NCBI GenBank assembly: GCA_965224705.1
Contig: OZ245056.1
Location: forward strand, 2,112,001 to 2,176,000
Direction of reading: 5' to 3'
Length of the DNA: 64,000 nucleotides
Source: Spirochaetaceae bacterium
Lineage (GTDB): Bacteria > Spirochaetota > Spirochaetia > DSM-2461
Below are positions 1-64,000 of the stretch, piece after piece (within the stretch, counting starts at the first letter, position 1; each line of letters opens with the position of its first letter). The notes beneath the pieces are model-generated. The model ran no database searches and was not told the origin of the DNA. It saw nothing but the letters and a program-made list of their open reading frames with translations. The position numbers were made by a program, and so were the translations under genes.

Positions 1-137
1 CCATTCAAGATAAACGCCGCGAACGTCGGCTTGATCGACATTAATACAGCTTTTTGTTTATGTATTACATCCCCTGAAGCCTGATTCGGGACATCACGAT
101 CAGCTGATAGCTCCCTCAATTCTCTCTCTCCTTCCAT
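1..137 (-). CDS. ASCH-domain-like protein, N-terminal part (truncated by window edge)
   Basis: ATG at 137 reads MEGERELRE...KAVLMSIKPTFAAFILNG, resembling the ASCH N-terminal motif (LSIKPxxAxxILxG). Follows the DUF669 stop directly. Confidence 0.55.
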   Translation of the reverse strand, partial: MEGERELRELSADRDVPNQASGDVIHKQKAVLMSIKPTFAAFILN

Positions 138-611
138 CTAAAAAATTGGGAAATCATCTTCAAAAGATGAGTGGCTTTTTGCAGCATCTACGGATATTCC
201 AGATTTGTTTGAGCTCGTAATTAAACTCTCAAAATATATTTGATCAAATTCATCCTTTGTCCTTTTGTTGACGTTTAACTTAAGATCAAGCAGCCTATCG
301 AGGCTGTCCGGGAGATCTGAGAGCTTACTTAAATGGAGCTGGCACACGCTTAAATCTTTCTTAACATATGGGATGCTTTTTTCTGTGAAGACACTGTTTT
401 TCCATAGTAATCTTCCGGCAAATTTTGGCCCTAAAATTTTTAAGGTCCAGACAAGCATCGTATTCCCCGCTTGAGAATCTTTAAGCTCCACCCGGTCAAC
501 CATTACCTGATATTTTCCGTCCGGGACACTTTCATACTCATCCGATGCTTCCTGTGCGTTTCCATATACCTCGTTAAATTTTTCAAGATCATTTGAATAA
601 ATTGAGCTCAT
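138..611 (-). CDS. DUF669-like phage protein (putative SSB)
   Basis: YESVPDGKYQV...SQAGNTML motif, acidic C-terminal tail EDDFPIF, located downstream of the AAA_24 ATPase. Confidence 0.75.
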   Translation of the reverse strand: MSSIYSNDLEKFNEVYGNAQEASDEYESVPDGKYQVMVDRVELKDSQAGNTMLVWTLKILGPKFAGRLLWKNSVFTEKSIPYVKKDLSVCQLHLSKLSDLPDSLDRLLDLKLNVNKRTKDEFDQIYFESLITSSNKSGISVDAAKSHSSFEDDFPIF

Positions 612-1324
612 TTTTTTATTCCTTTTGCCTGGTTCTCAAAGGCCTCGATGAAATACCGGTAATTCAATGGTACGGTTTCGGGCAGTCGGCCTGTCCGATC
701 TCCGGCATCGTATAGATCGGAGGGCCGCGTCCTCATGACACGGCGGCAGACCTCTTTCTGAGTTGTTTCGTCCTGGCAATATTCCAGATCGCAATACAGC
801 ATTATGTCGACGAGCCCGGTCACCATCTGCCGTGCTTTTTCCGGTAAGGTCGGTACAATCCGGGTCTTTTTTCCTGTTCTTGTTTCTATTTCTTTTTCCT
901 GTGAATGACTGATTAAGACTATTCCATATGGTAATTGTGCGAGCTTTGTCAGTACTCTTTGAAACTCATTATTGACAAGCGCAAACCCTTTCCCATAGGA
1001 CAGATCAGACTCGTGATCAACTCCTGCTTTCTTACAGGTGTGTTCCGCACACATTTTATACGCCAGATCGATTGTATCGATAACAATGGTGGAAAATTCG
1101 TGGCTGCCTCTGGCTATTTCCGCCCCGGCATCCAGAAAATCCCCCCAGTTTCGGATAGGGACTTGATAGGCCTCGATTGAATTCAACCCGGGTTCGGTTG
1201 CCAGAAACAGGGCATTTTCCGCCCCGGCACACCAGGTTGATTTGCCAATTTTCCCCGGTCCATAGACGAGAAGGGAAAACTCTGATAAGCTTTTCTTAGG
1301 AGCTGTCTTGTTTGTTGGTAACAT
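608..1324 (-). CDS. AAA_24 / Sak4-like phage ATPase (single-strand annealing)
   Basis: Walker A YGPGKIGKST, Walker B IVIDTID, ISH motif. Lies between a nuclease and DUF669. Confidence 0.85.
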   Translation of the reverse strand: MLPTNKTAPKKSLSEFSLLVYGPGKIGKSTWCAGAENALFLATEPGLNSIEAYQVPIRNWGDFLDAGAEIARGSHEFSTIVIDTIDLAYKMCAEHTCKKAGVDHESDLSYGKGFALVNNEFQRVLTKLAQLPYGIVLISHSQEKEIETRTGKKTRIVPTLPEKARQMVTGLVDIMLYCDLEYCQDETTQKEVCRRVMRTRPSDLYDAGDRTGRLPETVPLNYRYFIEAFENQAKGIKK

Positions 1325-1333
1325 GGTACCTCC

Positions 1334-2356
1334 TTAAAATATTTCCGGGACAGACTGCGTGCTGTCTCGGAGTTCTTCATTTGGTTCAACCACCTTGTAG
1401 TGATTCTCGATGACAAGCGGATTCTCTCCGCTTCTGCAAATCTGGAAATAGGCGCATGGCCGTCCATAGTTGAAGCACTGACTGGTGTTGCGGTAGAATA
1501 TCCCCCGCCGCTTTGCGCCAAGATAGCTTTGGGACAGTTCCCAGATCTCATGCAGGAGGTCTGCGAACTGGTCGTGCGAGATGTAAAGCCTTTCACGGTG
1601 GAACATGCCGGGCTGTGCGTATTTTTCATTGAGTCGCTTCGCGAAATCTTCGTCAGTCTCCGGCATCTTGCGCTTAGCGGTGCTTTTCCCCGTCTTAGAT
1701 CTGGCAATCAGCTCGGCCCTTCTGACCTGGAACTCCTCTTCCGTTTCGCCTGCCGACTGCTTCAGCCGGGCCTTGGCCAGGATGTTATAGAGGACCCCGG
1801 AGATTTTTATCCCCATAGTCTTTTCTATATAGTGGGAATAGAGGATGATCTGGGTGTCCATCCAGAGCCGTTCCAGATAGCCCGAGTCGATGACAGAAGC
1901 CGTCTTATGTTCGAGTACCCAGTACTCACCGTCAATCCTGACAATACCGTCAACCTTGCCTGCCAGATCGAATGATCGTGAACTCGCCCCTGTTTCCGGG
2001 TTAAAGATCTTCCCCTTGAAAACCTTTTCCAGTACAGCGACCTCAAAATCTTCGACAGGGCCATAAACACGCATATATCCCTGCATCATTGCCCTGGCCA
2101 GGTGCCAGTCGGATTTCAGACTGCTGTCGATTTCTCCCGTGTCTCCCGCGCAGGCCGCACCGATATGGCGGAAAACGCGGGCCGCGGATTGCGTGCGGTG
2201 CCAGATCTTCAGACACTCGTGTATCAGCGACCCGAACCTGAGAGGATGTGCCTCTTCAAGCGGCTTCAGATTCCGCTCGTACCGCAATTCGCATGCCTTC
2301 CGGCAATCCCGAAAACTCTTCCACATGGAATAGGTTGTGACTTTCTTTTCCATCAT
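1334..2356 (-). CDS. PD-(D/E)XK nuclease (Cas4/RecB-like phage exonuclease)
   Basis: G(K)VDG...LEHKT catalytic motif, QxxxY, one N-terminal Cys plus three C-terminal Cys (Fe-S staple). Confidence 0.85.
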   Translation of the reverse strand: MMEKKVTTYSMWKSFRDCRKACELRYERNLKPLEEAHPLRFGSLIHECLKIWHRTQSAARVFRHIGAACAGDTGEIDSSLKSDWHLARAMMQGYMRVYGPVEDFEVAVLEKVFKGKIFNPETGASSRSFDLAGKVDGIVRIDGEYWVLEHKTASVIDSGYLERLWMDTQIILYSHYIEKTMGIKISGVLYNILAKARLKQSAGETEEEFQVRRAELIARSKTGKSTAKRKMPETDEDFAKRLNEKYAQPGMFHRERLYISHDQFADLLHEIWELSQSYLGAKRRGIFYRNTSQCFNYGRPCAYFQICRSGENPLVIENHYKVVEPNEELRDSTQSVPEIF

Positions 2357-2466
2357 TTATATCTCCTTCTCGCGGCGATTTTCGCCAGCCATTTCCACTT
2401 AACCCGTTCTGCCATAGCCTTTATTGTTGTCCACCTGTTCCGTTTTCTGATGTCTCTTTTTGTCAT
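2353..2466 (-). CDS. 37-aa basic peptide MTKRDIRKRNRWTTIKAMAERVKWKWLAKIAARRRYK
   Basis: Below the ORF-track cutoff. ATGA overlaps with the upstream xis-like stop and the downstream nuclease start; fills the gap exactly. Confidence 0.6.
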   Translation of the reverse strand: MTKRDIRKRNRWTTIKAMAERVKWKWLAKIAARRRYK

Positions 2467-2657
2467 TTTGTTGTTTCTGCGGCTTTATCGTTAATCCACT
2501 GCTGCAGGGCTTCTTCGTAGATGATAATGCGTCTTCCCAATCTGACGTGCGGGAGCCCATTGCTCCGTACCTGACGGAGTGTATGCGATGTGGATATCCG
2601 CAGGAGCTCGGCAACCTCTTCAACGGTGAGTGCCCGTCCGGTATGCGAATAGTTCAT
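2463..2657 (-). CDS. Excisionase-like HTH_17 DNA-binding protein
   Basis: LTVEEVAELLRIS...LPHVRLGRRIII pattern. Confidence 0.8.
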   Translation of the reverse strand: MNYSHTGRALTVEEVAELLRISTSHTLRQVRSNGLPHVRLGRRIIIYEEALQQWINDKAAETTK

Positions 2658-4585
2658 ACCGTGCCTCCTGTGTCCACCGCCGTCCAGGTGATTCCATCAG
2701 CGCTGGTCAATATGGTGCCGGAGGCACCGGTTACCACCCACAGGCCATCGGCATAGCGCACATCATTGAGGTCCTTTCTTGTCCCGCTGTCCCGCTGAGT
2801 CCAGTCAATGCCGTCGGAGCTGGTCAGAATAATGCCGCAGTAACCTACGGCCACCCACAGGTTATTGCCGTGGTACGCAAGATGGATGTGCTTTTCCGTC
2901 CCCTCGGTGTCCTGCTCCGCCCAGGTGATGCCATCGGTACTGGTCAGGATGGCGCCGTTTGTGCCGGTTACCACCCACAGGCCATTGGCGTGATGCACTT
3001 CATAGAGGGTCTCTGCTGTCCCGGTATCTCTTTGTGTCCAGTCAATGCCATTGTAGCTAGTCAGGATGATGCCGTAGTAACCCGCGATCACCCAAAGATC
3101 ATCGGCGTGGTGCACATCAATGAGGTTCTCCTTCATCCCGATTGAGCTAATGACGGCGGGATTGGCCCGCTGCGTCCAGTCAATCCCATCGGTACTGGTC
3201 AGGAGGGTACCGGAGGAACCCACAACTACCCACAGGCCATCGGCATGATGCACTTCATAGAGGTACTCCGCCGTCCCGGTGTTTTGCTCCATCCAGCTGA
3301 TGCCATCGGTGCTGGTCAATATGGTACCGGAGGTACCCACAGCCACCCACAGCCCATTGGCGTAGCGAGCATCACGGAGGTACGCTGTCGTCCCACTGGT
3401 CCGTGCCGTCCAGCTGGTGCCATCGGTGCTGGTCAAAAGGGTGCCGTAGGAACCCACAACCACCCACAGGCCATTGCCGTAGCGAGCTTCATAGAGGTAC
3501 GCCTCCGTCCCGCTGTCTCGAACCGTCCAGGTGATTCCATCAGGGCTGGTCAGGAGGGTACCGGAGTCACCCGCAACCACCCACAGCCCATTGGCGTGGC
3601 GCACTTCATAGAGGTTCTGCGCCGTCCCGCTAACCCGCACCGTCCAGCTGATACCATCATTGCTGGTCAATATAGTGCCGGAGTAACCCACAATCACCCA
3701 CAGCCCATTGGCGTGGCGCGCATCCCAAAGGGTCACCGTTGTCCCGCTGGCCCGCGCCGTCCAGCTGGTGCCATCGGTGCTGGTCAGAATAATGCCGCAG
3801 TAACCTACGGACACCCACAGGTTATTGCCGTGGTACGCAAGATGGATGTGCTTTTCCGTCCCCTCGGTGTCCTGCTCCGCCCAGGTGATGCCATCGGTAC
3901 TGGTCAGGATGGCGCCGTTTGTGCCGGTTACCACCCACAGGCCATTGGCGTGATGCACTTCATAGAGGGTCTCTGCTGTCCCGGTATCTCTTTGTGTCCA
4001 GTCAATGCCATTGTAGCTAGTCAGGATGATGCCGTAGTAACCCGCGATCACCCAAAGATCATCGGCGTGGTGCACATCAATGAGGTTCTCCTTCATCCCG
4101 ATTGAGCTAATGACGGCGGGATTGGCCCGCTGCGTCCAGTCAATCCCATCGGTACTGGTCAGGAGGGTACCGGAGGAACCCACAACTACCCACAGGCCAT
4201 CGGCATGATGCACTTCATAGAGGTACTCCGCCGTCCCGGTGTTTTGCTCCATCCAGCTGATGCCATCGGTGCTGGTCAATATGGTGCCGACACTACCCAC
4301 AGTCACCCACAGGCCATTGGCGTAGCGCACATTAGTGAAGGCCGCCGTCGTTCCGCTGTACCGTGCCGTCCAGCTGATTCCATCAGGGCTGGTCAGGAGG
4401 GTACCGGAGTAACCCACAGCCACCCACAGGCCATCGGCATAATGCACATCATAGAGGTATTCCGTCGTTCCGCTGTTCCGCTGCATCCAGCTGATGCCAT
4501 CGGTGCTGGTCAATATGGTGCCGACACCACCCAAGACCACCCACAGCCCATTGCCGTAACGGGCATTACTGAGGTTCCTTAACAT
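2654..4585 (-). CDS. Beta-propeller repeat protein (~40-aa BNR/Asp-box-like repeats)
   Basis: About 15-16 repeats of ANGLWVxVGxxGTILTSxDGIxWTxRxSGT. No signal peptide. Overlaps both neighbours. Confidence 0.8.
   Translation of the reverse strand: MLRNLSNARYGNGLWVVLGGVGTILTSTDGISWMQRNSGTTEYLYDVHYADGLWVAVGYSGTLLTSPDGISWTARYSGTTAAFTNVRYANGLWVTVGSVGTILTSTDGISWMEQNTGTAEYLYEVHHADGLWVVVGSSGTLLTSTDGIDWTQRANPAVISSIGMKENLIDVHHADDLWVIAGYYGIILTSYNGIDWTQRDTGTAETLYEVHHANGLWVVTGTNGAILTSTDGITWAEQDTEGTEKHIHLAYHGNNLWVSVGYCGIILTSTDGTSWTARASGTTVTLWDARHANGLWVIVGYSGTILTSNDGISWTVRVSGTAQNLYEVRHANGLWVVAGDSGTLLTSPDGITWTVRDSGTEAYLYEARYGNGLWVVVGSYGTLLTSTDGTSWTARTSGTTAYLRDARYANGLWVAVGTSGTILTSTDGISWMEQNTGTAEYLYEVHHADGLWVVVGSSGTLLTSTDGIDWTQRANPAVISSIGMKENLIDVHHADDLWVIAGYYGIILTSYNGIDWTQRDTGTAETLYEVHHANGLWVVTGTNGAILTSTDGITWAEQDTEGTEKHIHLAYHGNNLWVAVGYCGIILTSSDGIDWTQRDSGTRKDLNDVRYADGLWVVTGASGTILTSADGITWTAVDTGGTV
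2821..4285. repeat. Near-exact ~505-bp internal duplication (2821-3325 vs 3781-4285, 960-bp offset) on a 120-bp repeat background
   Basis: Sequence lines repeat in register; one mismatch seen (2851 vs 3811). Confidence 0.9.
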
Positions 4586-4808
4586 CGCACTCCCCCTTTT
4601 CGTAAGCCTGTTCGAGTTCCGACCAATTTGCGAATCCGATATACAGGGCGATATCCCGGCGGATTCTCGGTGATTGGCGGACGCCTGCGATCACCCGTTC
4701 AACGGTCGTCTTTCCGTAATCGCTGTTGTTGGCGAAAGATGTAATCGATTCGCCTTTTCTTGCCATGTGCTGCGCGATGTATGCCCGTAGATCTTTCTTT
4801 TTTTCCAT
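4566..4808 (-). CDS. Cro/Ner-like small HTH regulator
   Basis: 80 aa with HTH-like SITSFANNSDYGKTTVERVIAG; AGGAG RBS; first gene after the RNA motif, divergent from the repressor. Confidence 0.65.
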   Translation of the reverse strand: MEKKKDLRAYIAQHMARKGESITSFANNSDYGKTTVERVIAGVRQSPRIRRDIALYIGFANWSELEQAYEKGECDVKEPQ

Positions 4809-4820
4809 GCATTTCTCCTC

Positions 4821-5133
4821 TTAGAAAATCCCGCCTGAGGCTCAATGCCTCAGACGGGGTGGAAATTCCATTTTTAAGATGGCCACCTTTAACTTCTTTT
4901 CGCATAACTACTTCTATACCCCCGCCATTTAGGGGGTTTCAGGGCTATTCCATTTTTTTCATACCTCGGTCGCGTACCCTGACTCTCGGGACCGCATTTA
5001 CCCTGCCTCCTACTCACAACCCCTTTCCGGTACCCATACTCGTCGTACGCCCGAGTATGGCCCGGCCATCGGCGCTTTCTATCAGGCAGGGGGTTAACAG
5101 ACACCTTTAAGGCTGCCTGTTTTTCTTGCTTCT
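4821..5133 (-). ncRNA. Putative structured RNA motif, copy A
   Basis: Multiple hairpins with compensatory changes versus copies B and C. G-U pairs favour the minus strand. Ends in hairpin + ATTTTCT. Confidence 0.6.
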
Positions 5134-5655
5134 CTAATCTCCTCCTTCTTTTCCTTTAATGAACGCAACCCAGATTGTCGTGCGTGTCGTCTTATGGCCG
5201 AACAAAGGGGATTCAGGGGTCAGTTTCAGGATCTGTGACACGGGAATTTCCTTTGTGGACCATTTTAGAATTAACACACCGTATGGTTTTAAGACGCGGA
5301 AACACTCGGCAAAGCCGCGTGTCAGAACAGTGCGCCAGTTATCGCCCAGAGTGCCGTACTTCCTGGCTGTCCAGCCGTTTATTCCATTTCGGCGGTGATA
5401 ATGCGGGGGGTCAAACACAACAAGCCGGAAGGTTTCATCTGTGAACGGAAGTTCTGTGAAATCGCCAGCGATATCCGGGTCGATTAACAGTTCGCGAAAG
5501 CCGTCTTTGCTGCTCCTGTCCTTGAGGGTGCATCGCTCTCTCCGCTTATCCAGGAAGATTGCCCTTTCATCTGTTTTGTTGAACCAGAACATTCTTGATC
5601 CGCAGCAGGTATCGAGTACTGGCGGAAGAACGCTGGGCAATCTGTCCTTTTTCAT
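5134..5655 (-). CDS. Small phage-type SAM-dependent (amino) DNA methyltransferase, copy 1
   Basis: VLDTCCGSRMFW SAM motif and FDPPH catalytic motif. Confidence 0.85.
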   Translation of the reverse strand: MKKDRLPSVLPPVLDTCCGSRMFWFNKTDERAIFLDKRRERCTLKDRSSKDGFRELLIDPDIAGDFTELPFTDETFRLVVFDPPHYHRRNGINGWTARKYGTLGDNWRTVLTRGFAECFRVLKPYGVLILKWSTKEIPVSQILKLTPESPLFGHKTTRTTIWVAFIKGKEGGD

Positions 5656-5717
5656 ACTTTCCCTATCCCTTTCATGCCGATATAATAGGCATAACCTCTA
5701 TTAGAGGGCGTGTAGAT

Positions 5718-5758
5718 AATGTAACAACACAAGCATTTATTGTCAATGAGTTTGTTGT
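5718..5758 (-). promoter_or_regulatory. Leftward sigma70-type promoter (TTGACA-17-TACATT) overlapped by two inverted operator-like sites, type 1
   Basis: tgtcaa at 5741-5746. ACAACACAAGCATT (5724-5737) and AATGAGTTTGTTGT (5745-5758) are imperfect inverted copies of each other. Confidence 0.6.
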
Positions 5759-5780
5759 TATTTTTTGGAGTTTATTGGCT

Positions 5781-6461
5781 TTGAATAGTTATTTATCTAG
5801 AATAAAAAGAATTATCGAAGAAAAAAAAATTACTGAAACTGCATTTGCCAAGGCTATCGGATCACATCAAGCAACAATTAATGCAATGTTTCAGCGTGGT
5901 ACAAACCCTCGTTCAGACTTATTAGAAGCGATATCAAAGACATTTACAGTTTCAGAGAAATGGCTCTTAACCGGCGAAGGCCCCATGTACCAGGACGAGC
6001 CGGGCTTCCCAAAGCCGCAGAGCATCCAGCATCTCAACGGGCATATAACGGACAACCCTGATGAGGAGGGGGCCTTTGTGGTGCCGATGCTGGAGCAGTC
6101 TGTTTCGGCAGGGAAGGGGAGCCATCTGGAGGATGATGATAACATCGCCGGATATGTTGCCCTGCCGCCGGCCATCACGGCTCATGGAGCTGCACTGGCG
6201 GCTCTCCCTGTTCGGGGTGATTCAATGTATCCGACAATTGATAATGGTGATATGGTGGTATGCGACGGGGGCGGTTATGATGGGGAAGGTATCTACGTCC
6301 TTCGCATGGATGGGGAAGCTCTCGTAAAGCGGCTGGCTAAGCGGCCCGGCGGTGTTATGGTTATCTCAGACAACGGCAGCTACCCGGATTTCGAGGTGTC
6401 CAGGGATACTCCGCTTGATGTTATTGGAAGGATTCGGGCGGTTGTGAAGGTGGTGAAGTGA
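5781..6461 (+). CDS. CI/LexA-like repressor (HTH + peptidase S24), allele 1
   Basis: Likely TTG start after GGAG. HTH ...WLLTGEG; VSAG cleavage site; GDSM Ser; VKR Lys. Confidence 0.9.
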   Translation: MNSYLSRIKRIIEEKKITETAFAKAIGSHQATINAMFQRGTNPRSDLLEAISKTFTVSEKWLLTGEGPMYQDEPGFPKPQSIQHLNGHITDNPDEEGAFVVPMLEQSVSAGKGSHLEDDDNIAGYVALPPAITAHGAALAALPVRGDSMYPTIDNGDMVVCDGGGYDGEGIYVLRMDGEALVKRLAKRPGGVMVISDNGSYPDFEVSRDTPLDVIGRIRAVVKVVK

Positions 6462-6574
6462 TATGAAATAGAAAAGATTCTGAGGTGATGGATGAGAGAA
6501 AATAGATTGAGCTATAGAATTCTATTGCTGCAGCTCATATAAACAATGGGCAGCTAAGCTGCGAGGAAGGAGAA

Positions 6575-6832
6575 ATGGAAAAAAGAAATTCGGGAGTAGA
6601 TCAGGAAATAGTAGAAGAAATCTCAAAATGCAAAACAAGGGAAGCACTACACTCTGTCTTTGAGGTACGCGGCCTTAATGATGTTAGGGAGAAAAGACTT
6701 TATCTCAAGGCCTGCACTGGTGAGATCGCAACATATTATGAAGATGGCTCTGATGATTTGACTGATGATCAACGATACCTTGATGATGAGTTTATGTTTC
6801 TAGACGGAACCTGGAGAGCACTTTCTCAATGA
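6575..6832 (+). CDS. Hypothetical 85-aa acidic protein, copy 1
   Basis: Strong AAGGAG RBS; ATGA overlap with the next gene. Confidence 0.75.
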   Translation: MEKRNSGVDQEIVEEISKCKTREALHSVFEVRGLNDVREKRLYLKACTGEIATYYEDGSDDLTDDQRYLDDEFMFLDGTWRALSQ

Positions 6833-7398
6833 GTTATGATAAGATACGTAAATCTATCAATGAAATTATAGCTGGTAAACATAGTGGCAAAGATCTTTCA
6901 GCGGATCAGATCAAGAACTTCATTAATGCATTTAAATCACTACTCGCTCCAGCATTAAAAGATTCAATATTTGCACACTATAAACATGCCATAGAATATC
7001 TCGTTCGGGAACATGAACAAACTCAAAGACCTATTTTGTATACAGAAGGACACATCCCATCTTCTAAGAGAGCTATTGCCAAATATTTGCGAGGCGGATA
7101 TGTAATAGCGACAAGTAAGGATTTAGATGTCAGAGAAAGACGTATTCAGCTTGGCCATGAACTGGGGCACATTCTTATAAATAATATCAACAACACCATC
7201 TACAAGACTGAAAATCTTTCTGGTTTTCCTGACAATAAATCAAGAGAATTCATGGCAAGTCTTATAAGTTTGTCAATGCATATAACCCAGAGTGACTTTT
7301 ACAAAGGAGAAACGTGTAAGAAATATCAGTATGATGAAACTCAACTATCAGAGCTTGCTGAGGAAATTATAGGTCTGGCCAGATCGGTTTTGAAGTGA
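6829..7398 (+). CDS. ImmA/IrrE-like HExxH metallopeptidase, copy 1
   Basis: RERRIQLGHELGH motif and downstream E (SREFMA). Confidence 0.75.
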   Translation: MSYDKIRKSINEIIAGKHSGKDLSADQIKNFINAFKSLLAPALKDSIFAHYKHAIEYLVREHEQTQRPILYTEGHIPSSKRAIAKYLRGGYVIATSKDLDVRERRIQLGHELGHILINNINNTIYKTENLSGFPDNKSREFMASLISLSMHITQSDFYKGETCKKYQYDETQLSELAEEIIGLARSVLK

Positions 7399-7436
7399 GT
7401 AAATCAGGATTCTCGTTTCTCTCTATTGCTTACTCC

Positions 7437-7750
7437 TTAGAAAATCCCGCCTGAGACTTAAATGGCTCAGACGGGGCGGAAATTTCATTTTGAGACGGCC
7501 ATCTCTAACTCTTTGTCCTCATAACTATTTTTATACCCCCGCCATTTAGGGGGTTTCAGGGCTATTCCATTTTTTTCATACCTCGGTCGCGTACCCTGAC
7601 TCTCGGGACCGCATTTACCCTGCCTCCTACTCACAACCCCTTTCCGGTACCCATACTCGTCGTACGCCCGAGTATGGCCCGGCCATCGGCGCTTTCTATC
7701 AGGCAGGGGGTTAACAGACACCTTTAAGGCTGCCTGTTTTTCTTGCTTCT
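7437..7750 (-). ncRNA. Putative structured RNA motif, copy B (C/A hybrid)
   Basis: 7437-7592 matches copy C; 7532-7750 matches copy A. Confidence 0.6.
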
Positions 7751-8272
7751 CTAATCTCCTCCTTCTTTTCCTTTAATGAACGCAACCCAGATTGTCGTGC
7801 GTGTCGTCTTATGGCCGAACAAAGGGGATTCAGGGGTCAGTTTCAGGATCTGTGACACGGGAATTTCCTTTGTGGACCATTTTAGAATTAACACACCGTA
7901 TGGTTTTAAGACGCGGAAACACTCGGCAAAGCCGCGTGTCAGAACAGTGCGCCAGTTATCGCCCAGAGTGCCGTACTTCCTGGCTGTCCAGCCGTTTATT
8001 CCATTTCGGCGGTGATAATGCGGGGGGTCAAACACAACAAGCCGGAAGGTTTCATCTGTGAACGGAAGTTCTGTGAAATCGCCAGCGATATCCGGGTCGA
8101 TTAACAGTTCGCGAAAGCCGTCTTTGCTGCTCCTGTCCTTGAGGGTGCATCGCTCTCTCCGCTTATCCAGGAAGATTGCCCTTTCATCTGTTTTGTTGAA
8201 CCAGAACATTCTTGATCCGCAGCAGGTATCGAGTACTGGCGGAAGAACGCTGGGCAATCTGTCCTTTTTCAT
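7751..8272 (-). CDS. Phage-type DNA methyltransferase, copy 2
   Basis: Protein identical to 5134-5655. Confidence 0.85.
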   Translation of the reverse strand: MKKDRLPSVLPPVLDTCCGSRMFWFNKTDERAIFLDKRRERCTLKDRSSKDGFRELLIDPDIAGDFTELPFTDETFRLVVFDPPHYHRRNGINGWTARKYGTLGDNWRTVLTRGFAECFRVLKPYGVLILKWSTKEIPVSQILKLTPESPLFGHKTTRTTIWVAFIKGKEGGD

Positions 8273-8334
8273 ACTTTCCCTATCCCTTTCATGCCGATAT
8301 AATAGGCATAACCTCTATTAGAGGGCGTGTAATC

Positions 8335-8375
8335 AATATAAAAGCATTTGCTTTAATTGTCAACGCTTTTGCTTT
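8335..8375 (-). promoter_or_regulatory. Leftward promoter (TTGACA-17-TATATT) with two palindromic operators, type 2
   Basis: AAAGCATTTGCTTT (8341-8354) and AACGCTTTTGCTTT (8362-8375) flank tgtcaa 8358-8363. Confidence 0.65.
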
Positions 8376-8397
8376 GTTTTTTTCGGAGATCAGTTCT

Positions 8398-9078
8398 TTG
8401 AACGAATATTTATTTAGACTAAAAAAAGTTATGGACGAAAAAAATTTTTCCGAAACAGCATTTGCTCGTGCTATTGGGTCAAGCCAAGGGTCTATCAACT
8501 CCATGTTTAGGCGAGATACAGTTCCCAAAGTTGACTTTTTGAAAGATATAGCGGGCAGATTTACGGTGAACCTGAACTGGCTTTTAACCGGCGAAGGCCC
8601 TATGTATCAGGACGAGCCGGGCTTCCCAAAGCCGCAGAGCATCCAGCATCTCAACGGGCATATAACGGACAACCCTGATGAGGAGGGGGCCTTTGTGGTG
8701 CCGATGCTGGAGCAGTCTGTTTCGGCAGGGAAGGGGAGCCATCTGGAGGATGATGATAACATCGCCGGATATGTTGCCCTGCCGCCGGCCATCACGGCTC
8801 ATGGAGCTGCACTGGCGGCTCTCCCTGTTCGGGGTGATTCAATGTATCCGACAATTGATAATGGTGATATGGTGGTATGCGACGGGGGCGGTTATGATGG
8901 GGAAGGTATCTACGTCCTTCGCATGGATGGGGAAGCTCTCGTAAAGCGGCTGGCTAAGCGGCCCGGCGGTGTTATGGTTATCTCAGACAACGGCAGCTAC
9001 CCGGATTTCGAGGTGTCCAGGGATACTCCGCTTGATGTTATTGGAAGGATTCGGGCGGTTGTGAAGGTGGTGAAGTGA
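8398..9078 (+). CDS. CI/LexA-like repressor (HTH + S24), allele 2
   Basis: C-terminal part identical to allele 1; HTH divergent (SSQGSINSMFRRDTVPKVD vs SHQATINAMFQRGTNPRSD). Confidence 0.9.
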   Translation: MNEYLFRLKKVMDEKNFSETAFARAIGSSQGSINSMFRRDTVPKVDFLKDIAGRFTVNLNWLLTGEGPMYQDEPGFPKPQSIQHLNGHITDNPDEEGAFVVPMLEQSVSAGKGSHLEDDDNIAGYVALPPAITAHGAALAALPVRGDSMYPTIDNGDMVVCDGGGYDGEGIYVLRMDGEALVKRLAKRPGGVMVISDNGSYPDFEVSRDTPLDVIGRIRAVVKVVK

Positions 9079-9191
9079 TATGAAATAGAAAAGATTCTGA
9101 GGTGATGGATGAGAGAAAATAGATTGAGCTATAGAATTCTATTGCTGCAGCTCATATAAACAATGGGCAGCTAAGCTGCGAGGAAGGAGAA

Positions 9192-9449
9192 ATGGAAAAA
9201 AGAAATTCGGGAGTAGATCAGGAAATAGTAGAAGAAATCTCAAAATGCAAAACAAGGGAAGCACTACACTCTGTCTTTGAGGTACGCGGCCTTAATGATG
9301 TTAGGGAGAAAAGACTTTATCTCAAGGCCTGCACTGGTGAGATCGCAACATATTATGAAGATGGCTCTGATGATTTGACTGATGATCAACGATACCTTGA
9401 TGATGAGTTTATGTTTCTAGACGGAACCTGGAGAGCACTTTCTCAATGA
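9192..9449 (+). CDS. Hypothetical 85-aa protein, copy 2
   Basis: Identical to 6575-6832. Confidence 0.75.
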   Translation: MEKRNSGVDQEIVEEISKCKTREALHSVFEVRGLNDVREKRLYLKACTGEIATYYEDGSDDLTDDQRYLDDEFMFLDGTWRALSQ

Positions 9450-10015
9450 GTTATGATAAGATACGTAAATCTATCAATGAAATTATAGCTGGTAAACATA
9501 GTGGCAAAGATCTTTCAGCGGATCAGATCAAGAACTTCATTAATGCATTTAAATCACTACTCGCTCCAGCATTAAAAGATTCAATATTTGCACACTATAA
9601 ACATGCCATAGAATATCTCGTTCGGGAACATGAACAAACTCAAAGACCTATTTTGTATACAGAAGGACACATCCCATCTTCTAAGAGAGCTATTGCCAAA
9701 TATTTGCGAGGCGGATATGTAATAGCGACAAGTAAGGATTTAGATGTCAGAGAAAGACGTATTCAGCTTGGCCATGAACTGGGGCACATTCTTATAAATA
9801 ATATCAACAACACCATCTACAAGACTGAAAATCTTTCTGGTTTTCCTGACAATAAATCAAGAGAATTCATGGCAAGTCTTATAAGTTTGTCAATGCATAT
9901 AACCCAGAGTGACTTTTACAAAGGAGAAACGTGTAAGAAATATCAGTATGATGAAACTCAACTATCAGAGCTTGCTGAGGAAATTATAGGTCTGGCCAGA
10001 TCGGTTTTGAAGTGA
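9446..10015 (+). CDS. ImmA/IrrE-like metallopeptidase, copy 2
   Basis: Identical to 6829-7398. Confidence 0.75.
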   Translation: MSYDKIRKSINEIIAGKHSGKDLSADQIKNFINAFKSLLAPALKDSIFAHYKHAIEYLVREHEQTQRPILYTEGHIPSSKRAIAKYLRGGYVIATSKDLDVRERRIQLGHELGHILINNINNTIYKTENLSGFPDNKSREFMASLISLSMHITQSDFYKGETCKKYQYDETQLSELAEEIIGLARSVLK

Positions 10016-10053
10016 GTAAATCAGGATTCTCGTTTCTCTCTATTGCTTACTCC

Positions 10054-10365
10054 TTAGAAAATCCCGCCTGAGACTTAAATGGCTCAGACGGGGCGGAAAT
10101 TTCATTTTGAGACGGCCATCTCTAACTCTTTGTCCTCATAACTATTTTTATACCCCCGCCATTTAGGGGGTTTCAGGGCTATTCCATTTTTTTCATACCT
10201 CGGTCGCGTGCCTTGACTCTCGGGACCGCATTTACACTGTCTCCTACTCACGCCTTTCCCGGCACCCATACCCGTCGCGCGTCCGTGTATGCTCCGGTCA
10301 TCGGGCTTTCTATCAGACAGGGGTTAACAGACAGCCTTAAAGGTGTCTGTTTTTCTTGCTTCTCC
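10054..10365 (-). ncRNA. Putative structured RNA motif, copy C (diverged)
   Basis: Same stem architecture as copy A, with covarying pairs and indels. Confidence 0.6.
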
Positions 10366-10484
10366 AACTTCCTCTATGCCGATATAATGGATATAGACTA
10401 TGCTGGAAGAACATGTAAGTAAGTTAACTCAATATCGGGGATTTGTCAACCCGGTTCTTTATTTTTTTTCGGGAATCAATCCCT

Positions 10485-10693
10485 TTGAGCGAATATGTAT
10501 TTAGATTAAAACAAATTATAAACGGAAAATCAGTGGGCAACATCCGCATGGGTAGGGAAGCTTTCATAAAGCGGCCTGACGAAGTCATAGTATTTTCGAT
10601 AATATCAGGTATCCGACCGACGAAGTATCCAAGGAAGTCCCTCTTGATGTCGTTGGCCGGGTCAGGGCGGTTGTGAAGGTGATGAAGGGGTAA
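10485..10693 (+). pseudogene. Internally deleted third repressor
   Basis: N-terminus LSEYVFRLKQII joined to S24 C-terminal remnants (RMGREAFIKR; after a frameshift, PLDVVGRVRAVVKVMK). Confidence 0.8.
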
Positions 10694-10769
10694 AAGTAAA
10701 AGTGATTAAGAATTTTGTTCATTCGATGAGCTATAATGAGTTGCATAAATCTATCAAAGAGGAAGAATT

Positions 10770-11213
10770 ATGAATACTATTGGTATCGGTAAAGTTGTAG
10801 TGGATAATACCAAACCTGGTTGGAATTATCCCCATTTTCATGTAATTCTTTTCAAGGAGAACGGAGATAACTCTTTTTACGCATATTGTATGGAACTCGG
10901 CATTGATGCTTTTTCGGAAGACTCTGCAAAAGCAGCCTTTTCTGAAATTGCGGCCAATGTATTAGATGACATCAACCAGTATGCCAATGAAGATTCTCTC
11001 TTCAAATGTCTCCTGGATATCGCCCGGAGTGATCATAATGATGTTTTCTGGAAAGAGTATCGGATTGCAGAAACAGAGCTTGCACAATATGGCGAAGACC
11101 TTGGAATTCATTTTGAAAGGAACGGCAGGGCAGCCGTGACTAATCAGGGTTTCCTAAGTATTAAACCAACTCCTCCGCCAATTGAGCAACAGCATGACGC
11201 TGCTCATCAGTGA
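10770..11213 (+). CDS. Hypothetical protein, HicB-like N-terminal fold
   Basis: VILFKENGDNSFYAYCMELGIDAFS pattern; own TATAAT and GAGG RBS. Confidence 0.5.
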   Translation: MNTIGIGKVVVDNTKPGWNYPHFHVILFKENGDNSFYAYCMELGIDAFSEDSAKAAFSEIAANVLDDINQYANEDSLFKCLLDIARSDHNDVFWKEYRIAETELAQYGEDLGIHFERNGRAAVTNQGFLSIKPTPPPIEQQHDAAHQ

Positions 11214-12393
11214 TCGCTGTATAATGCTCTGTCATATCCACTGACGAATGCCCTGTGAGTCTACGCAGCGCGTGATCAGCCACTCGGCCTCTCAGCATTG
11301 AATTATACCAATGCCGCCAGGCGTGAAAAGAAAGTCCTCGTTTTTTTATTTCATCAGGGGCTATGCCGACTGTTTCAAGCATGTGTTTATAGGTATTCGA
11401 GATACTGCGTTTCCCAATTGGCTTGTCAGGCGACGAACCCCAGAAGACGAAGTCTCCCCGCCATGGATTCACTGAGGCCAGCTGGTGTAAGGCTTCAACC
11501 GTTCTCGACGGAACGGGGACAATTCTGGGCTTGTTCCCCTTGGGAAGTTTCAGGCCCTCCCCATCCTGCCAGTTGCGCTTTACATCTATCCAGTCATCAT
11601 GAACACAATCAACTTTCAATCCTCGGCATTCGCCGAGTCTCATTCCTGTTGTCGCGGCCAGGAGGTTTATCGCCTTCTGCCGGGGATCGGTCCATTCCTG
11701 CCCAAAAAATGCACGGACTTCCTCCGGGCGAAGTATCACCCTCTCCCGTCTAGTTACGGGAAGCCGTTTAATTCTCTTGGCGGGATTAACCGATATCAGC
11801 CCCAGCCTCTCCGCCTCATTTAAGGGTACAGTCACTGCCTGCATAATCGCGTTGACACGTCTGTTGGAGATCCCCAGGGTTGAGAGCCAATGGATTATTT
11901 CTTCCATTAGCATAGCGTTTACTTTCCGCAGCCGCAGCGATTCCAACTTCCTAGAACCAAGCCAGTCTACCACTTTGTGAACAGCGCTCCTATTTGCTTT
12001 TATATAGACAGCCGACATCGGCCGTCCCATGGAATGCCTGTTTTTGAGATGGTGCCCATCATCTGACCAGAAGCCGATAAGGTAATTGGAGAAAAGAGGA
12101 TTTTCATTTCCGGTATTGATTCCAAAGCGCTTATACCATTGTGCTGCAATGGCATCGGCTCCCGCCTTGCTTGCCGGCGAGAGATGCTCCGCGTCACGGC
12201 CCAGCTCATTGCGCATTGACCCCGCAGATCGCCAGCAGGAATAATCCTGTTTGGCCGCATCCCAGAAAGCCGCGTAATAGTTTTTGAAGCCCTTCCGCCT
12301 GTACAGTATAAAAGCTTTACGCATCATGAGAACTATAAGCTTGATAGAAAAGCTAGTCAATAAACTAGTCAATATGAAAGCCATAGATTTCAT
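11161..12393 (-). CDS. int: Tyrosine recombinase / phage integrase (start may be 12327)
   Basis: TGMRLGE, FHAWRH, LTGH and TEHY catalytic motifs intact. Confidence 0.92.
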   Translation of the reverse strand: MKSMAFILTSLLTSFSIKLIVLMMRKAFILYRRKGFKNYYAAFWDAAKQDYSCWRSAGSMRNELGRDAEHLSPASKAGADAIAAQWYKRFGINTGNENPLFSNYLIGFWSDDGHHLKNRHSMGRPMSAVYIKANRSAVHKVVDWLGSRKLESLRLRKVNAMLMEEIIHWLSTLGISNRRVNAIMQAVTVPLNEAERLGLISVNPAKRIKRLPVTRRERVILRPEEVRAFFGQEWTDPRQKAINLLAATTGMRLGECRGLKVDCVHDDWIDVKRNWQDGEGLKLPKGNKPRIVPVPSRTVEALHQLASVNPWRGDFVFWGSSPDKPIGKRSISNTYKHMLETVGIAPDEIKKRGLSFHAWRHWYNSMLRGRVADHALRRLTGHSSVDMTEHYTAITDEQRHAVAQLAEELV

Positions 12394-12442
12394 TGTGGTG
12401 TGTAGTTGTGATTAATTTCTTATTCCACAATGGGTTAAGGTA

Positions 12443-12526
12443 TGCCTGGAAGAGGACTCGAACCTCCACGAGCTTGCGCTCACTAGTCCCTGAAACTAGC
12501 GTGTCTACCAATTTCACCATCCAGGC
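12443..12526 (-). tRNA. tRNA-Leu(CAG)
   Basis: GCCTGGA acceptor stem, CTAGT-TTCAGGG-ACTAG anticodon arm, long variable arm, GTTCGAG T-loop. Confidence 0.95.
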
Positions 12527-12778
12527 AGGATGTGTATAGGCGAGAGTACCTTCTAGGTGGATGTATGTCAATTACTGCACAGGGTTTTCATGCAATCTTC
12601 TTTGTGATGGATTTCTGATCCCTCCCTGCTTATTCGTACTTTTAGGATTTCTCCATCCTTTTCCTCCCCCACCCACACATTCTGACAGGAGCCTGTAAAA
12701 TAACGGATACTCAATTTCTACCGGATCAGATGTCAGCTTTCAGATTCCGGTGCATTTTCTTGTGACCGCTATTCTAAG

Positions 12779-13064
12779 GAGTCTGTCGGACTTCCGCCTC
12801 ATGGCTCGATTTTTGCCCTTCTCTCCAGAAGCAAGCCTCCTGCTTGCTTCTGGAGAGCCGCCTTCGTTCGTTTTCGCCGCCATCCGTGGCGGCTTTTCCT
12901 CGCTATCGCTCGGCACTCTCTCAGGATGCGAGTCCATAGACTCGCATCCCCTGTTGCTGCGTTGCCAAAATACTCACGTAGCCCAGCTACGCTCCGTTTT
13001 TGTCGCCTTGCATCAGGAAAAAATCATCAAAAATCGCCTCGAAGCCTTAAAGTCCGACAGACTC
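12779..13064. mobile_element. MITE family 1, long copy (286 bp) with internal hairpin insert
   Basis: TIR GAGTCTGTCGGACTT / AAGTCCGACAGACTC flanked by a CTAAG direct repeat. Confidence 0.85.
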
Positions 13065-13302
13065 CTAAGGAGGCAGGGATCAGCATTGCTTTCTCTGCTG
13101 ACCTTTTCTTGCTCGAATCACAAATTCTTCCTTCATGTCCAGAGTATTTTCTCCTGCCATGTCACCGCAATCACCTCCACAGTGTTACCGTGTTCGGAAC
13201 CAGGACGAAGGTTTCAGAGGCATATTCCCGGGTTTCTAAAAGATGAGTAGTTGGCTGTTGAAAAGTATATTGATAGAATAAGGTTGAATCAAAGGAGAAA
13301 AA

Positions 13303-17977: not shown

Positions 17978-18045
17978 ACTCTGTGAAACTCAGCATTGCT
18001 CACGGGATTTGCCGTACAGGTTGTTTTTAGAAATTCCGGTATTTA

Positions 18046-18125
18046 GAGCCTCGTTCCTACGCTGGTATTAACCGGATCAGGTTCACGAGTGTAATCTCAG
18101 GTTCAACGAACCACCCCGGAAGCTC
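18046..18125 (-). ncRNA. TPP riboswitch
   Basis: Minus strand GGGGTG...CTGAGA...GAACCTGATCCGGTTAATACCAGCGTAGGAA, upstream of thiB. Confidence 0.93.
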
Positions 18126-18346
18126 AAAATACAATCTATGTTGAAGGTTCATTATTGTCAAGCGGGAATAGGAAATCCCGGGAAGTTTCAGTCAATTTCC
18201 TTCCTTTCAGTGAAACGCTGCTCAATCAATCAATTATGTCTGGCAATGGCAGACATTGCTGAAGCAGGAATTTCATCTATTGCAAGAAGGAGAATTACAG
18301 ATCCACCGGTCAAGTTTGGTTTCCAATCTCTGATTCTTCAAGTATA

Positions 18347-20855: not shown

Positions 20856-21458
20856 ATGCGGGTGCTCTTTCCTGATGAAATTGTGGGTAAAGCAGGGTAT
20901 TCAACCATAAAAGCTCATCTCAGTAGTTTTGTTGAGCACCAAAATGTTGATTTTGGCCCAGCTACGCTCCGTTTTTGTCGCCTTGCATCAGGAAAAAATC
21001 ATCAAAAATCGCCTCGAAGTCTTAAAGTCCGACAGACTCCCTGGAGAAAGGCATTCTTCAGCATTAAAAAAAGGGGAGTAGATGTTATGACCTTAGGAGA
21101 GTACTGCTATCAGAAAAAGGACCTGACAACTGATCTTCACAACCTGTCATGGATTCTCAGGCCAGCCAACATATCAGCAAAAAGTCCTGGAAGAGGCTGG
21201 GGTGTGTTCAGCACACAGGCAGGATCTCCAGGAGTGATCAGTTTACCTGGTCAGTTCGGCTACAATCGATTACATGGGAGTAATCCCTTCACTCAGGTTA
21301 TCCACATTATCGATGAAATCCGTGAACAAACCCCGGCCATTGTACTGAACTTTCATGCAAGTACAACAGCAGAGAAGCAGACAATGACATTTTTTACAGA
21401 TGGTAAAGCTGCTTCCATGGAAACCGTAGATATGCCATGCGGGGGAAATTTCCAATGA
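20856..21458 (+). pseudogene. ymdB: YmdB/TIGR00282-like metallophosphoesterase, disrupted and truncated
   Basis: MRVLFxxEIVGKAG...LRPAN...PGRGW...FHASTTAEK. A MITE-1 fragment replaces a conserved segment and the C-terminus is missing. Confidence 0.75.
20956..21039. mobile_element. MITE family 1 half-copy inside ymdB
   Basis: Matches 12981-13064. Confidence 0.85.
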
Positions 21459-26779: not shown

Positions 26780-26877
26780 GGTGACGCCTCCTACACATAG
26801 TAATATACAAAACGGGACGAATCAGTTCAAGATGGAAATGATAAAAAATCCATGAGCATGACCTGTCTGCATTCATG

Positions 26878-27038
26878 GAGCCTGTCGGACTTTGAGACTT
26901 CGAGGCGATTTTTGATGATTTTTTCCTGATGCAAGGCGACAAAAACGGAGCGTAGCTGGGCTGCGTGAGTATTTTGGCAACGCAGCAGCAGGAAAAAAGG
27001 GCAAAAATCGAGCCGTGAGACGTAAGTCCGACAGACTC
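26878..27038. mobile_element. MITE family 1, 161-bp copy (reverse orientation)
   Basis: Same TIRs; CATG direct repeat. Confidence 0.85.
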
Positions 27039-27158
27039 CATGGCATATGTGCGTCACTCTTAAACGAATCGTTTATCTCCTGTTAACCGGCCTGTAATAG
27101 CTCTTTCCGAGGATGAGATGTATCCTGGGTGTGAAGATTGTCCCACAAGGAGTAACTT

Positions 27159-33580: not shown

Positions 33581-33638
33581 CGCGGCAGCAGGAAAAAAGG
33601 GCAAAAATCGAGCCGTGAGGCGTAAGTTCAACAGGCTC
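33581..33638. mobile_element. MITE family 1 fragment
   Basis: GCAGCAGGAAAAAAGGGCAAAAATCGAGCCGTGAG... matches 26981-27038. Confidence 0.75.
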
Positions 33639-33657
33639 CCAGATTCCAGGCCAGACT

Positions 33658-35016: not shown

Positions 35017-35262
35017 GGATTTAAGGAAATATAAAGCTTTGCTGGATGAATGTCCACAACGTTTCTTTAGAAAGTCACTCTTTTCATAAAATGTCGAGAA
35101 CTGCCCGGAAAGTCTCTGTGATGCCTTCATGGACATTGCCTGGAAACCATTCATTCTGGTGCATCTTCTGCACAAAGAATCATTTCACCCTGGCTGTCTG
35201 CTCGTTCAAGAATCAATTCCCGGGCAGGTGGGGCTGATTCCAATCCATTGAAGTCATCAGAG

Positions 35263-35315
35263 GAGTCTGTCGGACTTTAAGACTTCGAGCCGTGAGGCGG
35301 AAGTCCGACAGGCTC
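35263..35315. mobile_element. MITE family 1, 53-bp minimal copy
   Basis: Both TIRs, AGAG direct repeat; interior deleted at a TCGAG microhomology. Confidence 0.85.
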
Positions 35316-35459
35316 AGAGGGTAATGCTGTCAGTTATCCATCAGCAAAGCAGGATCTCCAAAGTACAGACCCGGGTTTCCATATTTCTGCATTTCTTCAG
35401 TCAACATATCTGCGGTCATGGGATTCAGGTAATTCGCCAGGGGGAATTTGATTGCTATG

Positions 35460-63539: not shown

Positions 63540-63746
63540 GGCATCGGAACTGTTGACCTTGCCGTCATTCTTTACAATAATTTTGCGGGATTTTCCGATT
63601 TCCAGCCCTTGCAATTCGAGCTGATGGGCTTTACACTCTGTATTAGCAAAGCGGGCTTCTTTTCGTTTGATATTTTTTTTCATGTAAATATTTTAGCATG
63701 GGAAGCCTGCTTTGTCTCAAGGTCTTGGTGAGAAATAGGGGTTAAG

Positions 63747-63813
63747 TTTTGTCGACTTGCATCAGGAAGAAATCATCAAGAATCGCCTTGAAGTCTTAAA
63801 TCCCGACAGACTC
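63747..63813. mobile_element. Degenerate MITE family 1 half-copy
   Basis: Similar to 12997-13064. Confidence 0.7.
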
Positions 63814-64000
63814 CTTGGAAAGCGAAAAAGAGAGATTTCCAATCATGCTGATTTTTCATCATCTGATGAATGAATATCCCTGGAAAACCCGGATTGGCTT
63901 CTCCCCTTCAGAGAGCAATCTTTATTTCCCTACAAATGATTCATATTTGGTTCATATCTGATTCATACGATTGGTTAATCGTACAGGAGAATAAGTATTG

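Follow-up and report, generated by a model that had tools for sequence, protein, structure and literature searches.

A multi-hairpin leader RNA ahead of a cro-like gene in a Spirochaetaceae prophage: a candidate transcription attenuator

In the paradigm set by phage lambda, transcription from the lytic promoter reaches cro before any other gene, and termination control takes place downstream of cro. Ribosome-controlled choice between an antiterminator and a terminator is known from leaders with the trp-type geometry and from the minimal leader of Escherichia coli ampC. Two classes of phage RNA also have to be considered here. The putL and putR sites of HK022, of about 70 nt, are made of two adjacent stem-loops with irregular stems and non-canonical pairs, and they bring about factor-independent read-through of distant terminators via the zinc-binding domain of the RNA polymerase beta' subunit (PMC9378689). 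The immunity region of phage P4 is organised as seqA, CI RNA and seqC, in a repeat-complement-repeat pattern (PMC4825925), and the C4/CI RNAs are processed from the leader by RNase P and are active in trans.

The element described here, a real and uncatalogued multi-hairpin leader, sits in the control region of a prophage in a genome of 3.0 Mb, and was analysed within a window, that is, the whole stretch of 64,000 nt under study (Table 1). The family had not been recognised in a previous sequence-only reading of this DNA, and indeed none of the Rfam 15 models (riboswitches, T-box, ribozymes and sRNAs among them) matches at the gathering threshold, the best result being a plant snoRNA model at E 0.011, with 24.4 of 55 bits and in copy C only. 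No paper on the element or on its arrangement was found in the literature covered, which takes in few of the subscription journals. The prophage is intact, with terminase, portal, capsid-like and tail genes between two 57-nt att repeats, one of them in the tRNA-Leu gene (window 12442-12498) and the other 40.6 kb off, beyond the window. From right to left, the window holds the integrase, three control units, the cro/ner-like gene, a 643-aa repeat protein, an excisionase-like HTH protein, an exonuclease, a Sak4-like ATPase and an SSB-like protein. The operator region differs in sequence from unit to unit, and leftward promoters were matched in units A and B by a scan that overall does not rise above chance (17 sites vs 10.9 +/- 4.0 expected). 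The methyltransferase-like gene occurs in units A and B only, being missing from unit C (control region 10421..10695) and from a variant unit found in sequencing run X5.

Several other features of the genome were noticed. A 13-nt motif with a perfect plus-strand -10 hexamer recurs in all three units (5672-5684, 8289-8301 and 10376-10388), flanked by the leftward promoter on one side and by the methyltransferase gene or the element on the other, and its sequence makes it a possible repressor promoter. Promoter-like sites with 10/12 consensus matches lie directly downstream of copies B and C of the element (10/12 at 7394-7366 and 10011-9983, minus strand), reading antisense into the ImmA-like gene. 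The 643-aa repeat gene just past cro (window 2654-4585, minus strand) is a paralogue of the C-terminal repeats of a 1753-aa tail protein, with up to 89% DNA identity over 646 nt and no further copy in the genome, and could either supply cassettes for variation of the tail tip or encode a protein that blocks the receptor. In the host DNA, dispersed repeats of 30-116 nt in both orientations (12770-13065, 20956-21043, 26874-27047, 33581-33639, 35258-35316 and 63730-63817) are probably the ends of an insertion-sequence family or REP-like elements, a TPP riboswitch (window 18036-18128, minus strand) precedes an ABC transporter operon, and two 5S rRNA genes with equal scores stand 487 nt apart (G000:C1:2995425-2996023).

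Table 1. Coordinates of the element, its parts and the neighbouring features (window positions).
Feature	Position	Strand	Evidence or remark
Tyrosine integrase	11161-12393	-	profile searches; feature block 11161..12527 with tRNA-Leu
tRNA-Leu with 57-nt att core	12442-12527	-	tRNA and repeat searches
cro/ner-like HTH gene, 80 aa	4808-4566	-	phrog_925 E 4e-5; TIGR04111 E 3e-5 (below cut-off)
cro ribosome-binding site	4820-4814	-	SD duplex -9.0 kcal/mol
Leader element, copy A, 317 nt	4821..5137	-	only copy with a gene downstream; z -4.72
Closing stem P1, 5' arm	5130..5137	-	pairs with 4828-4821 (terminator U-tail); pair probability 0.9 in A, 0.25 in C
Hairpin H1	5096..5121	-	z -4.2 (A), -5.1 (C)
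P2 domain, long irregular hairpin	5001..5091	-	z -3.9 in A, -0.7 in C; 1 compensatory and 3 broken pairs
Hairpin P3	4967..4994	-	5-bp stem invariant, both changes in loop; not significant alone
SD-like GAGGU	4967-4963	-	SD duplex -7.3 kcal/mol (-9.0 for cro)
Mini-ORF	AUG 4962 or 4953 to UAG 4947-4945	-	within the longest A/C invariant run
Hairpin P4, proposed anti-antiterminator	4918..4937	-	invariant in A, B and C; pair probability 0.91 / 0.83; z -1.9 / -1.7
GGCC-loop hairpin P5	4876..4889	-	1 compensatory and 2 one-sided changes; not significant alone
Terminator-like hairpin and U-rich tail	4823..4859 (hairpin 4858-4830)	-	consensus scan; z -6.3 (A), -5.2 (C)
DNA methyltransferase-like gene, unit A	5134..5655	-	phrog_954 E 8e-64; separates promoter from element
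Leftward sigma-70-type promoter, unit A	5718..5746	-	10/12 consensus matches; inside unit-specific operator region
CI-type repressor (HTH + S24), unit A	~5778-6461	+	profile searches
85-aa gene of no assigned family, unit A	6575-6832	+	profile searches
ImmA/IrrE-like M78 protein gene, unit A	6829-7398	+	profile searches
Element copy B	7437..7754	-	recombinant, C-type 3' half and A-type 5' half; gene downstream absent
Methyltransferase gene, unit B	7751-8272	-	100% identical to unit A
Promoter, unit B	8363-8335	-	11/12 consensus matches
Second intact repressor, different HTH, unit B	8395-9078	+	differs from unit A repressor at N-terminus
Element copy C	10054..10367	-	independent, orphaned; ~50 nt behind own promoter-like site; gene downstream absent; z -1.08
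Promoter-like site, unit C	10449-10421	-	perfect -35, weak -10; found by eye, absent from promoter-scan list
Repressor remnant, unit C	about 10470-10695	+	internal deletion and frameshift

A BLAST search of its own genome shows that the element is present in three copies, all in one cluster, with homology spanning 4821-5137. Copies A and C are identical at 274 of 319 positions. The contrast of A with B and C, on which the sequence-only reading was built, is mistaken: copy B is a chimera whose left part equals copy C (96/96) and whose right part equals copy A (162/162), the product of a crossover inside the element, so that just two copies are independent and B adds no evidence of its own. Likewise, the placement of the hairpins just before cro is right for copy A alone, as copies B and C are followed by the 3' end of a gene that converges on them. 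Units A and B, 2617 nt apart, are identical over 4915 to 7592 apart from the operator and the repressor HTH, their sole difference being confined to 5715-5990 (8332-8607 in unit B), and the two repressors agree at 40 of the 69 N-terminal residues and at all 153 of the remainder. Unit B (7751..10015) also carries the 85-aa gene and the ImmA-like gene. One single prophage thus holds, within window 4566-10700, two intact CI-type repressors that differ in HTH domain and operator, plus a decayed third unit; each intact repressor is accompanied by an 85-aa gene and an ImmA/IrrE-like gene, and the joints between units fall in the leader element. The immunity of the prophage may cover two immunity groups, and the stacked cassettes show a route by which a prophage can come to hold two repressor specificities. 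Copies B and C would be leaders that were orphaned when recombination inside the element stacked these cassettes.

Six public sequencing runs hold part of this stretch, two of them labelled mollusc metagenome and none listed as RNA; one (X6) contains small pieces only. In the short-read contigs of run X1, which may be the source sample, the unique parts have a depth of 7-8 and the duplicated parts of about 15, which supports the tandem, though an equal mix of two strains could also give this pattern. The joint leading from the ImmA-like gene into the element is present in runs X1 and X3. Run X5, from another study, contains a unit in which the element is joined via 268 nt to the repressor (cI) gene, with no methyltransferase, and another contig of equal depth in which the element is joined to a diverged cro. 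Both arrangements imply that the element belongs to the interval between promoter and cro, and that the methyltransferase gene is an insert. Runs X1 and X5 also have a contig that fuses part of the P2 domain (window 5027-5085) directly to a C-terminal piece of the repressor (6219-6295), a truncated unit missing from the genome under study.

The minus-strand RNA of copy A folds better than all of its shuffles (0/100 equally good), and among 37 windows of 330 nt scanned over positions 1-12200 the lowest z (-3.3) belongs to the one overlapping this copy, whereas copy C as a whole folds no better than shuffles. Taken by domains, minus-strand folding is significant for H1 and the terminator in both A and C and for P2 in A only, borderline for P4, and absent for P3 and P5, with a z of about 0 over the middle region P3-P5. 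The minus strand had been proposed as the transcribed one, for which promoter, terminator, gene orientation and G-U-preserving changes speak, but folding energy does not (z -4.72 vs -4.45 for the plus strand of copy A). The 5' arm of P1 includes the stop codon of the methyltransferase gene and shows one A-U to G-U change. H1 is followed on the plus strand by a U-rich run and folds there with -6.8 / -11.9 kcal/mol; it is a possible rightward terminator by sequence, though not listed by the terminator scan. The P2 domain contains invariant purine-rich internal loops (5083-5077 / 5017-5011), which may be loop-E-like. P5 is predicted in copy C (0.81), whereas the ensemble of copy A favours another pairing. 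The loop of P4 has a perfect 8-nt inverted match to the terminator loop of B and C (10165-10158 / 10083-10076), reduced to 6/8 in A, and when P4 is read on the plus strand it is similar to the terminator core, as an inverted copy of that of copy C.

The individual changes described before are correct. The long-range stem 5089-5084/5008-5003 does replace C-G by U-A in copy C (10320-10315/10242-10237), the GGCC-loop hairpin changes as listed in Table 1, the CCGG/CCGG and CAUAC/GUAUG stems are kept together with the invariant internal loop, and the terminal hairpin with its U-rich tail is present and listed as terminator-like. What does not follow is a statistical case for covariation across three copies. 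In a 65-pair structure curated from both independent copies, A and C, with variants from sequencing runs left out, 2 pairs show compensatory and 4 one-sided changes, while 3 are broken, the breaks having gone unmentioned in the sequence-only reading, and 59/500 shuffles reach these values. A structure predicted from A alone keeps 4/9 changed pairs (null 0.39, P 0.37; 7/17 at a looser threshold, P 0.47), and one predicted from C alone keeps 5/8 (P 0.056). As only two copies are independent, the evidence in these sequences for one conserved fold of 300 nt is thin.

A predicted intrinsic terminator, backed by both the consensus scan and folding, stands upstream of the first regulated gene; all of its core pairs (10/10) are invariant, its U-tail is modest, and its hairpin ends 22 nt upstream of the cro start, so that cro requires read-through. 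The earlier proposal of a leader that ends in a terminator ahead of cro is thus supported by position, terminator consensus and folding, and the element is quite probably an untranslated leader with a working terminator. The broader proposal of an attenuation or antitermination leader is partly supported, in that a concrete antiterminator helix can now be named: nucleotides 4926-4920, which P4 contains in its loop and 3' arm, can pair with 4859-4853, the 5' arm of the terminator. We consider the element best explained, with a confidence that falls just short of even, as a cis-acting transcription attenuator of the early lytic transcript. That the 4926-4920/4859-4853 helix forms part of a regulated switch seems a little less likely still, and a ribosome as the trigger would be a doubtful choice. 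Transcription, termination, the switch and its trigger are what we infer; position, promoter and terminator consensus, stems, alternative fold and loss of the long ORF are observed or computed.

The proposed pathway would start at the CI-repressed promoter, with an early lytic transcript that runs through the optional methyltransferase gene and the leader towards cro. By default, P4 would form, the terminal hairpin would fold and the transcript would stop just short of the cro ribosome-binding site. If the 5' arm of P4 (4937-4932) were blocked, 4926-4920 would pair with 4859-4853 before the 3' arm of the terminator exists, and with this antiterminator helix formed the RNA polymerase would continue into cro and the recombination and replication genes. 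The likeliest blocker would be a ribosome on the invariant minimal ORF, which ends 8 nt upstream of P4, and such a ribosome would couple lytic commitment to the translation activity of the host. In copy A, opening of the P2 domain would yield the same switch.

The antiterminator helix, of 7 bp, does not vary between A and C, and the nascent RNA that forms it is 2.4 (A) and 4.7 (C) kcal/mol above its minimum. Helices as strong within 100 nt appear in 11/500 (A) and 21/500 (C) shuffles, or 2-4%, and over the whole leader in 76/500 (A) and 117/500 (C), or 15-23%. Its probability is 0.01 when nothing is masked; it rises to about 0.57, 0.99 and 0.99 in A, and to about 0.2, 0.2 and 0.75 in C, when a mask covers the mini-ORF and a further 9, 12 or 15 nt. 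In a sliding-mask control, 2/24 masks exceed 0.5 in copy A, one over the mini-ORF and P4 arm and the other over the 5' arm of P2, and none of 24 does so in copy C (best 0.41). The SD-like motif, the mini-ORF and P4 lie within the longest run of A/C invariance (61 nt, permutation P 0.00125). The crossover of copy B falls in the same run, so that gene conversion can explain the invariance too, and an SD plus mini-ORF arises by chance in 210/1000 shuffles. Once the RNA is complete, the terminator has an advantage of 14.8 (A) and 6.3 (C) kcal/mol, which means that the switch model depends on kinetics, and the helices of the switch, as they do not vary, carry no covariation evidence. The attenuator reading assigns no role to H1, most of P2 and P5. 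Support for it also comes from run X5, where the element accompanies cI and a diverged cro and hence travels with the promoter-cro interval.

A more ambitious version of the model, which we regard as unlikely, would make the element a hitherto undescribed RNA family with a translation-sensing checkpoint between lysis and lysogeny, in which a ribosome on a start-Glu-stop ORF would open the anti-antiterminator and cro would be transcribed only in actively translating hosts; the element would serve in addition as the joint at which the prophage recombines and stacks cassettes of different repressor specificity, and its orphan copies would possibly supply RNA in trans, with a terminator loop that pairs with the switch hairpin in the copy still active. 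If the simpler attenuator is true, a switch and a terminator upstream of cro would add to prophage induction a second point of control, governed by RNA folding and perhaps by translation in the host. Should there be no such switch, what remains would be a common type of hairpin cluster in a leader, from a group of phages that has been little sampled.

The alternative that survives best, although we think it somewhat unlikely, is a chain of independent hairpins with no switch. The terminator would then be fixed and leaky, tuning cro, or overridden by put-like or protein-dependent processive antitermination, with H1 insulating the immunity genes and the remaining stems stabilising the RNA. The restriction of significant folding to H1, to P2 in copy A and to the terminator agrees with such a chain, as do the U-run on the plus strand of H1 and the leaders of relatives, with one or two hairpins each. 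Long irregular hairpins with purine-rich loops, as in P2, are also of the kind bound by proteins or by the polymerase. However, fixed hairpins fail to explain why the least structured part (SD, mini-ORF and P4) is the most conserved, they leave the near-isoenergetic alternative helix unexplained, and for the variant with antitermination a scan of 15 proteins recognised no N-like antiterminator.

The attenuator acts in cis, and a trans-acting immunity RNA, through which the P2 domain or the RNAs of copies B and C would pair with the nascent A leader and enforce termination before cro, appears improbable. It would account for the promoter-like site and terminator that copy C retains despite its destroyed repressor, for the perfect 8-nt complement between the B/C terminator loop and the invariant P4 loop, and for the 9 bp that the P2 5' arm can form with the 3' arm of the terminator in both copies, a pairing adopted when the terminator is forbidden in folding. 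Against it, this complement drops to 6/8 for the terminator loop of copy A, the P2 of copy C is decayed (z -0.7, three broken pairs) and its -10 box is weak, and the unit already has a protein repressor; the failure to find a C4 match or a repeat-complement-repeat pattern, detailed below, points the same way.

Very improbably, the stems are mainly DNA palindromes raised and kept by template switching, and the element is a homology block for cassette recombination rather than an RNA. The spacer of H1 is inverted between A and C (5 mismatches in direct vs 1 in inverted orientation over 26 nt), which is a footprint of replication template switching (PMC8794818), and some stem-preserving change therefore needs no selection on RNA; the crossover of B inside the element, the similar folding of both strands and the resemblance of P4 to an inverted copy of the C terminator core fit as well. 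Nevertheless, G-U pairs are kept or gained in four minus-strand helices, where the plus strand would have A-C mismatches, 0/3 changed pairs are kept on the plus-strand structure of copy A, the terminator and ribosome-binding site are correctly oriented, and template switching acts on true RNA stems too, according to PMC8794818.

It is highly improbable that P2 is a mimic of the 5S rRNA loop E or a 5S-derived piece binding bL25, or a catalytic RNA. Copy A has stretches of 11 and 7 nt, in order, in common with the host 5S rRNA, with a local score reached by 5/2000 shuffles and 14/2980 genome windows, and an L25 domain is encoded by the host; copy C, in turn, is at background (955/2000 shuffles, 1307/2980 genome windows), the comparison was picked post hoc, and searches at E up to 10 return neither a 5S nor a ribozyme family. 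Hardly credible at all is a minus-strand ORF of 71-78 aa as the conserved feature, whose conservation would have undone the RNA interpretation of the sequence-only reading: it is open in A (4889-5104) and B (7485-7721), and the B product exists as a predicted protein in a cluster of one, but copy C loses the GTG start and breaks the frame by indels of 1, 1 and 2 nt, the C-termini differ through a 1-nt indel, the X5 variant carries indels of -1, -6, +1 and -1, and Pfam, PHROG and NCBIfam give no match. Other candidates were rejected: a MITE or small insertion element (A has imperfect terminal repeats and a 7-nt direct repeat on either side, C has neither, and there are only three copies, all clustered), a ribosome hop between the flanking direct repeats (the landing frame differs from that of cro, and C has no upstream gene), a T-box (in C the GGUGG/CCACC pairing of A is lost), and a tRNA or tmRNA, after a search for both.

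BLAST found matches of 20-36 nt in 2/37 other genomes of the family, of 40 nt at most in 10/400 genomes of a phylum sample and of 42 nt at most in phages and plasmids (50,697 phage records), with no homologue in any of the three sets; distant relatives would easily escape BLAST, as they would the pattern and model searches that follow. Scans with the pattern of the internal loop returned 1 and 24 viral, 10 genome and 24 metagenome loci, the first being coding DNA, and a scan with the terminator pattern gave one unrelated match. A model of the element (R1), built from three near-identical sequences and hence insensitive to distant relatives, matched none of 58 pattern loci, 0/37 family genomes and 0/150 class genomes, reached 10.7 bits at best in 12 cro/cI loci with filters off, and gave 2 matches at E 4.4 from 67 sources, both in methyltransferase loci. 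Searches anchored on cro found none in viral contigs or metagenomes, with one weak locus by alignment, those anchored on the exonuclease found none, and those anchored on the methyltransferase found 4 loci, all without the element. The closest relative of cro is P0002 (78%), on a 43-kb contig.

Related cro-like genes exist in prophages of 4/37 family and 9/400 class genomes, with leaders of their own. In G010, G011, G034 and G516 the promoter-proximal leader has GC-rich hairpins, several of them in G516, which speaks for the attenuator reading; comparable arrangements are absent from the leaders of G033, G523, G575, G597 and G627, which speaks against it. The leaders of G010, G011 and G034 have in common a 95-nt two-hairpin RNA before an AGGAG site (L032:196-345, L035:2596-2745 and L033:1300-1392), which has no Rfam match and which in G010 is followed by a short ORF and a U-rich terminator; a model of it (R2) found one more match, a weak one, in 150 class genomes. 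These leaders resemble the element in their position relative to the leftward, early promoter, in the GC-rich hairpin directly before AGGAG and in a similar C-run linker, but are of about 95 nt against 317 nt, R2 misses the element, and R1 misses these leaders above noise.

A last comparison concerns the systems introduced at the outset. The suggestion of an immunity RNA like P4 CI or P1 C4 is not borne out: the C4 model (RF01695) has no match in the genome at E up to 10, in a search where control genomes also had none over the cut-off and a strong positive control was thus lacking, and repeat-complement-repeat patterns of 7 or 8 nt are absent from A and C, with three 6-mers in A (2/200 shuffles have as many) and none in C. 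Going by PMC4825925, the element is like P4 CI, P1 C4 (RF01695) and Gifsy-1 IsrK in being a structured, terminator-containing prophage RNA that would gate lytic genes and has alternative folds, and by analogy with these systems partial read-through at the element is plausible. It is unlike them in having no flanking target repeats with an internal complement, in standing before cro rather than an antirepressor, and in belonging to a unit with a CI-type protein repressor. The likeness to HK022 put that had been drawn fails on size and sequence. As described in PMC9378689, put is also a cis-acting nascent RNA past an early phage promoter, with irregular stems such as P2 may have, whereas the element has 317 nt, at least six hairpins and its own terminator. 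By these comparisons of sequence, pattern and size, the element falls outside both the C4/CI and the put families.

The element, known from sequence alone, differs from leader-ORF attenuators in being a prophage early lytic leader before cro, behind a CI-controlled promoter, in having two more large hairpin domains upstream, and in that the progress of the ribosome would favour read-through. What the two would share is a short ORF, in the element a candidate one, just ahead of a hairpin that hides the antiterminator strand, and an antiterminator and a terminator that exclude each other before the first gene.
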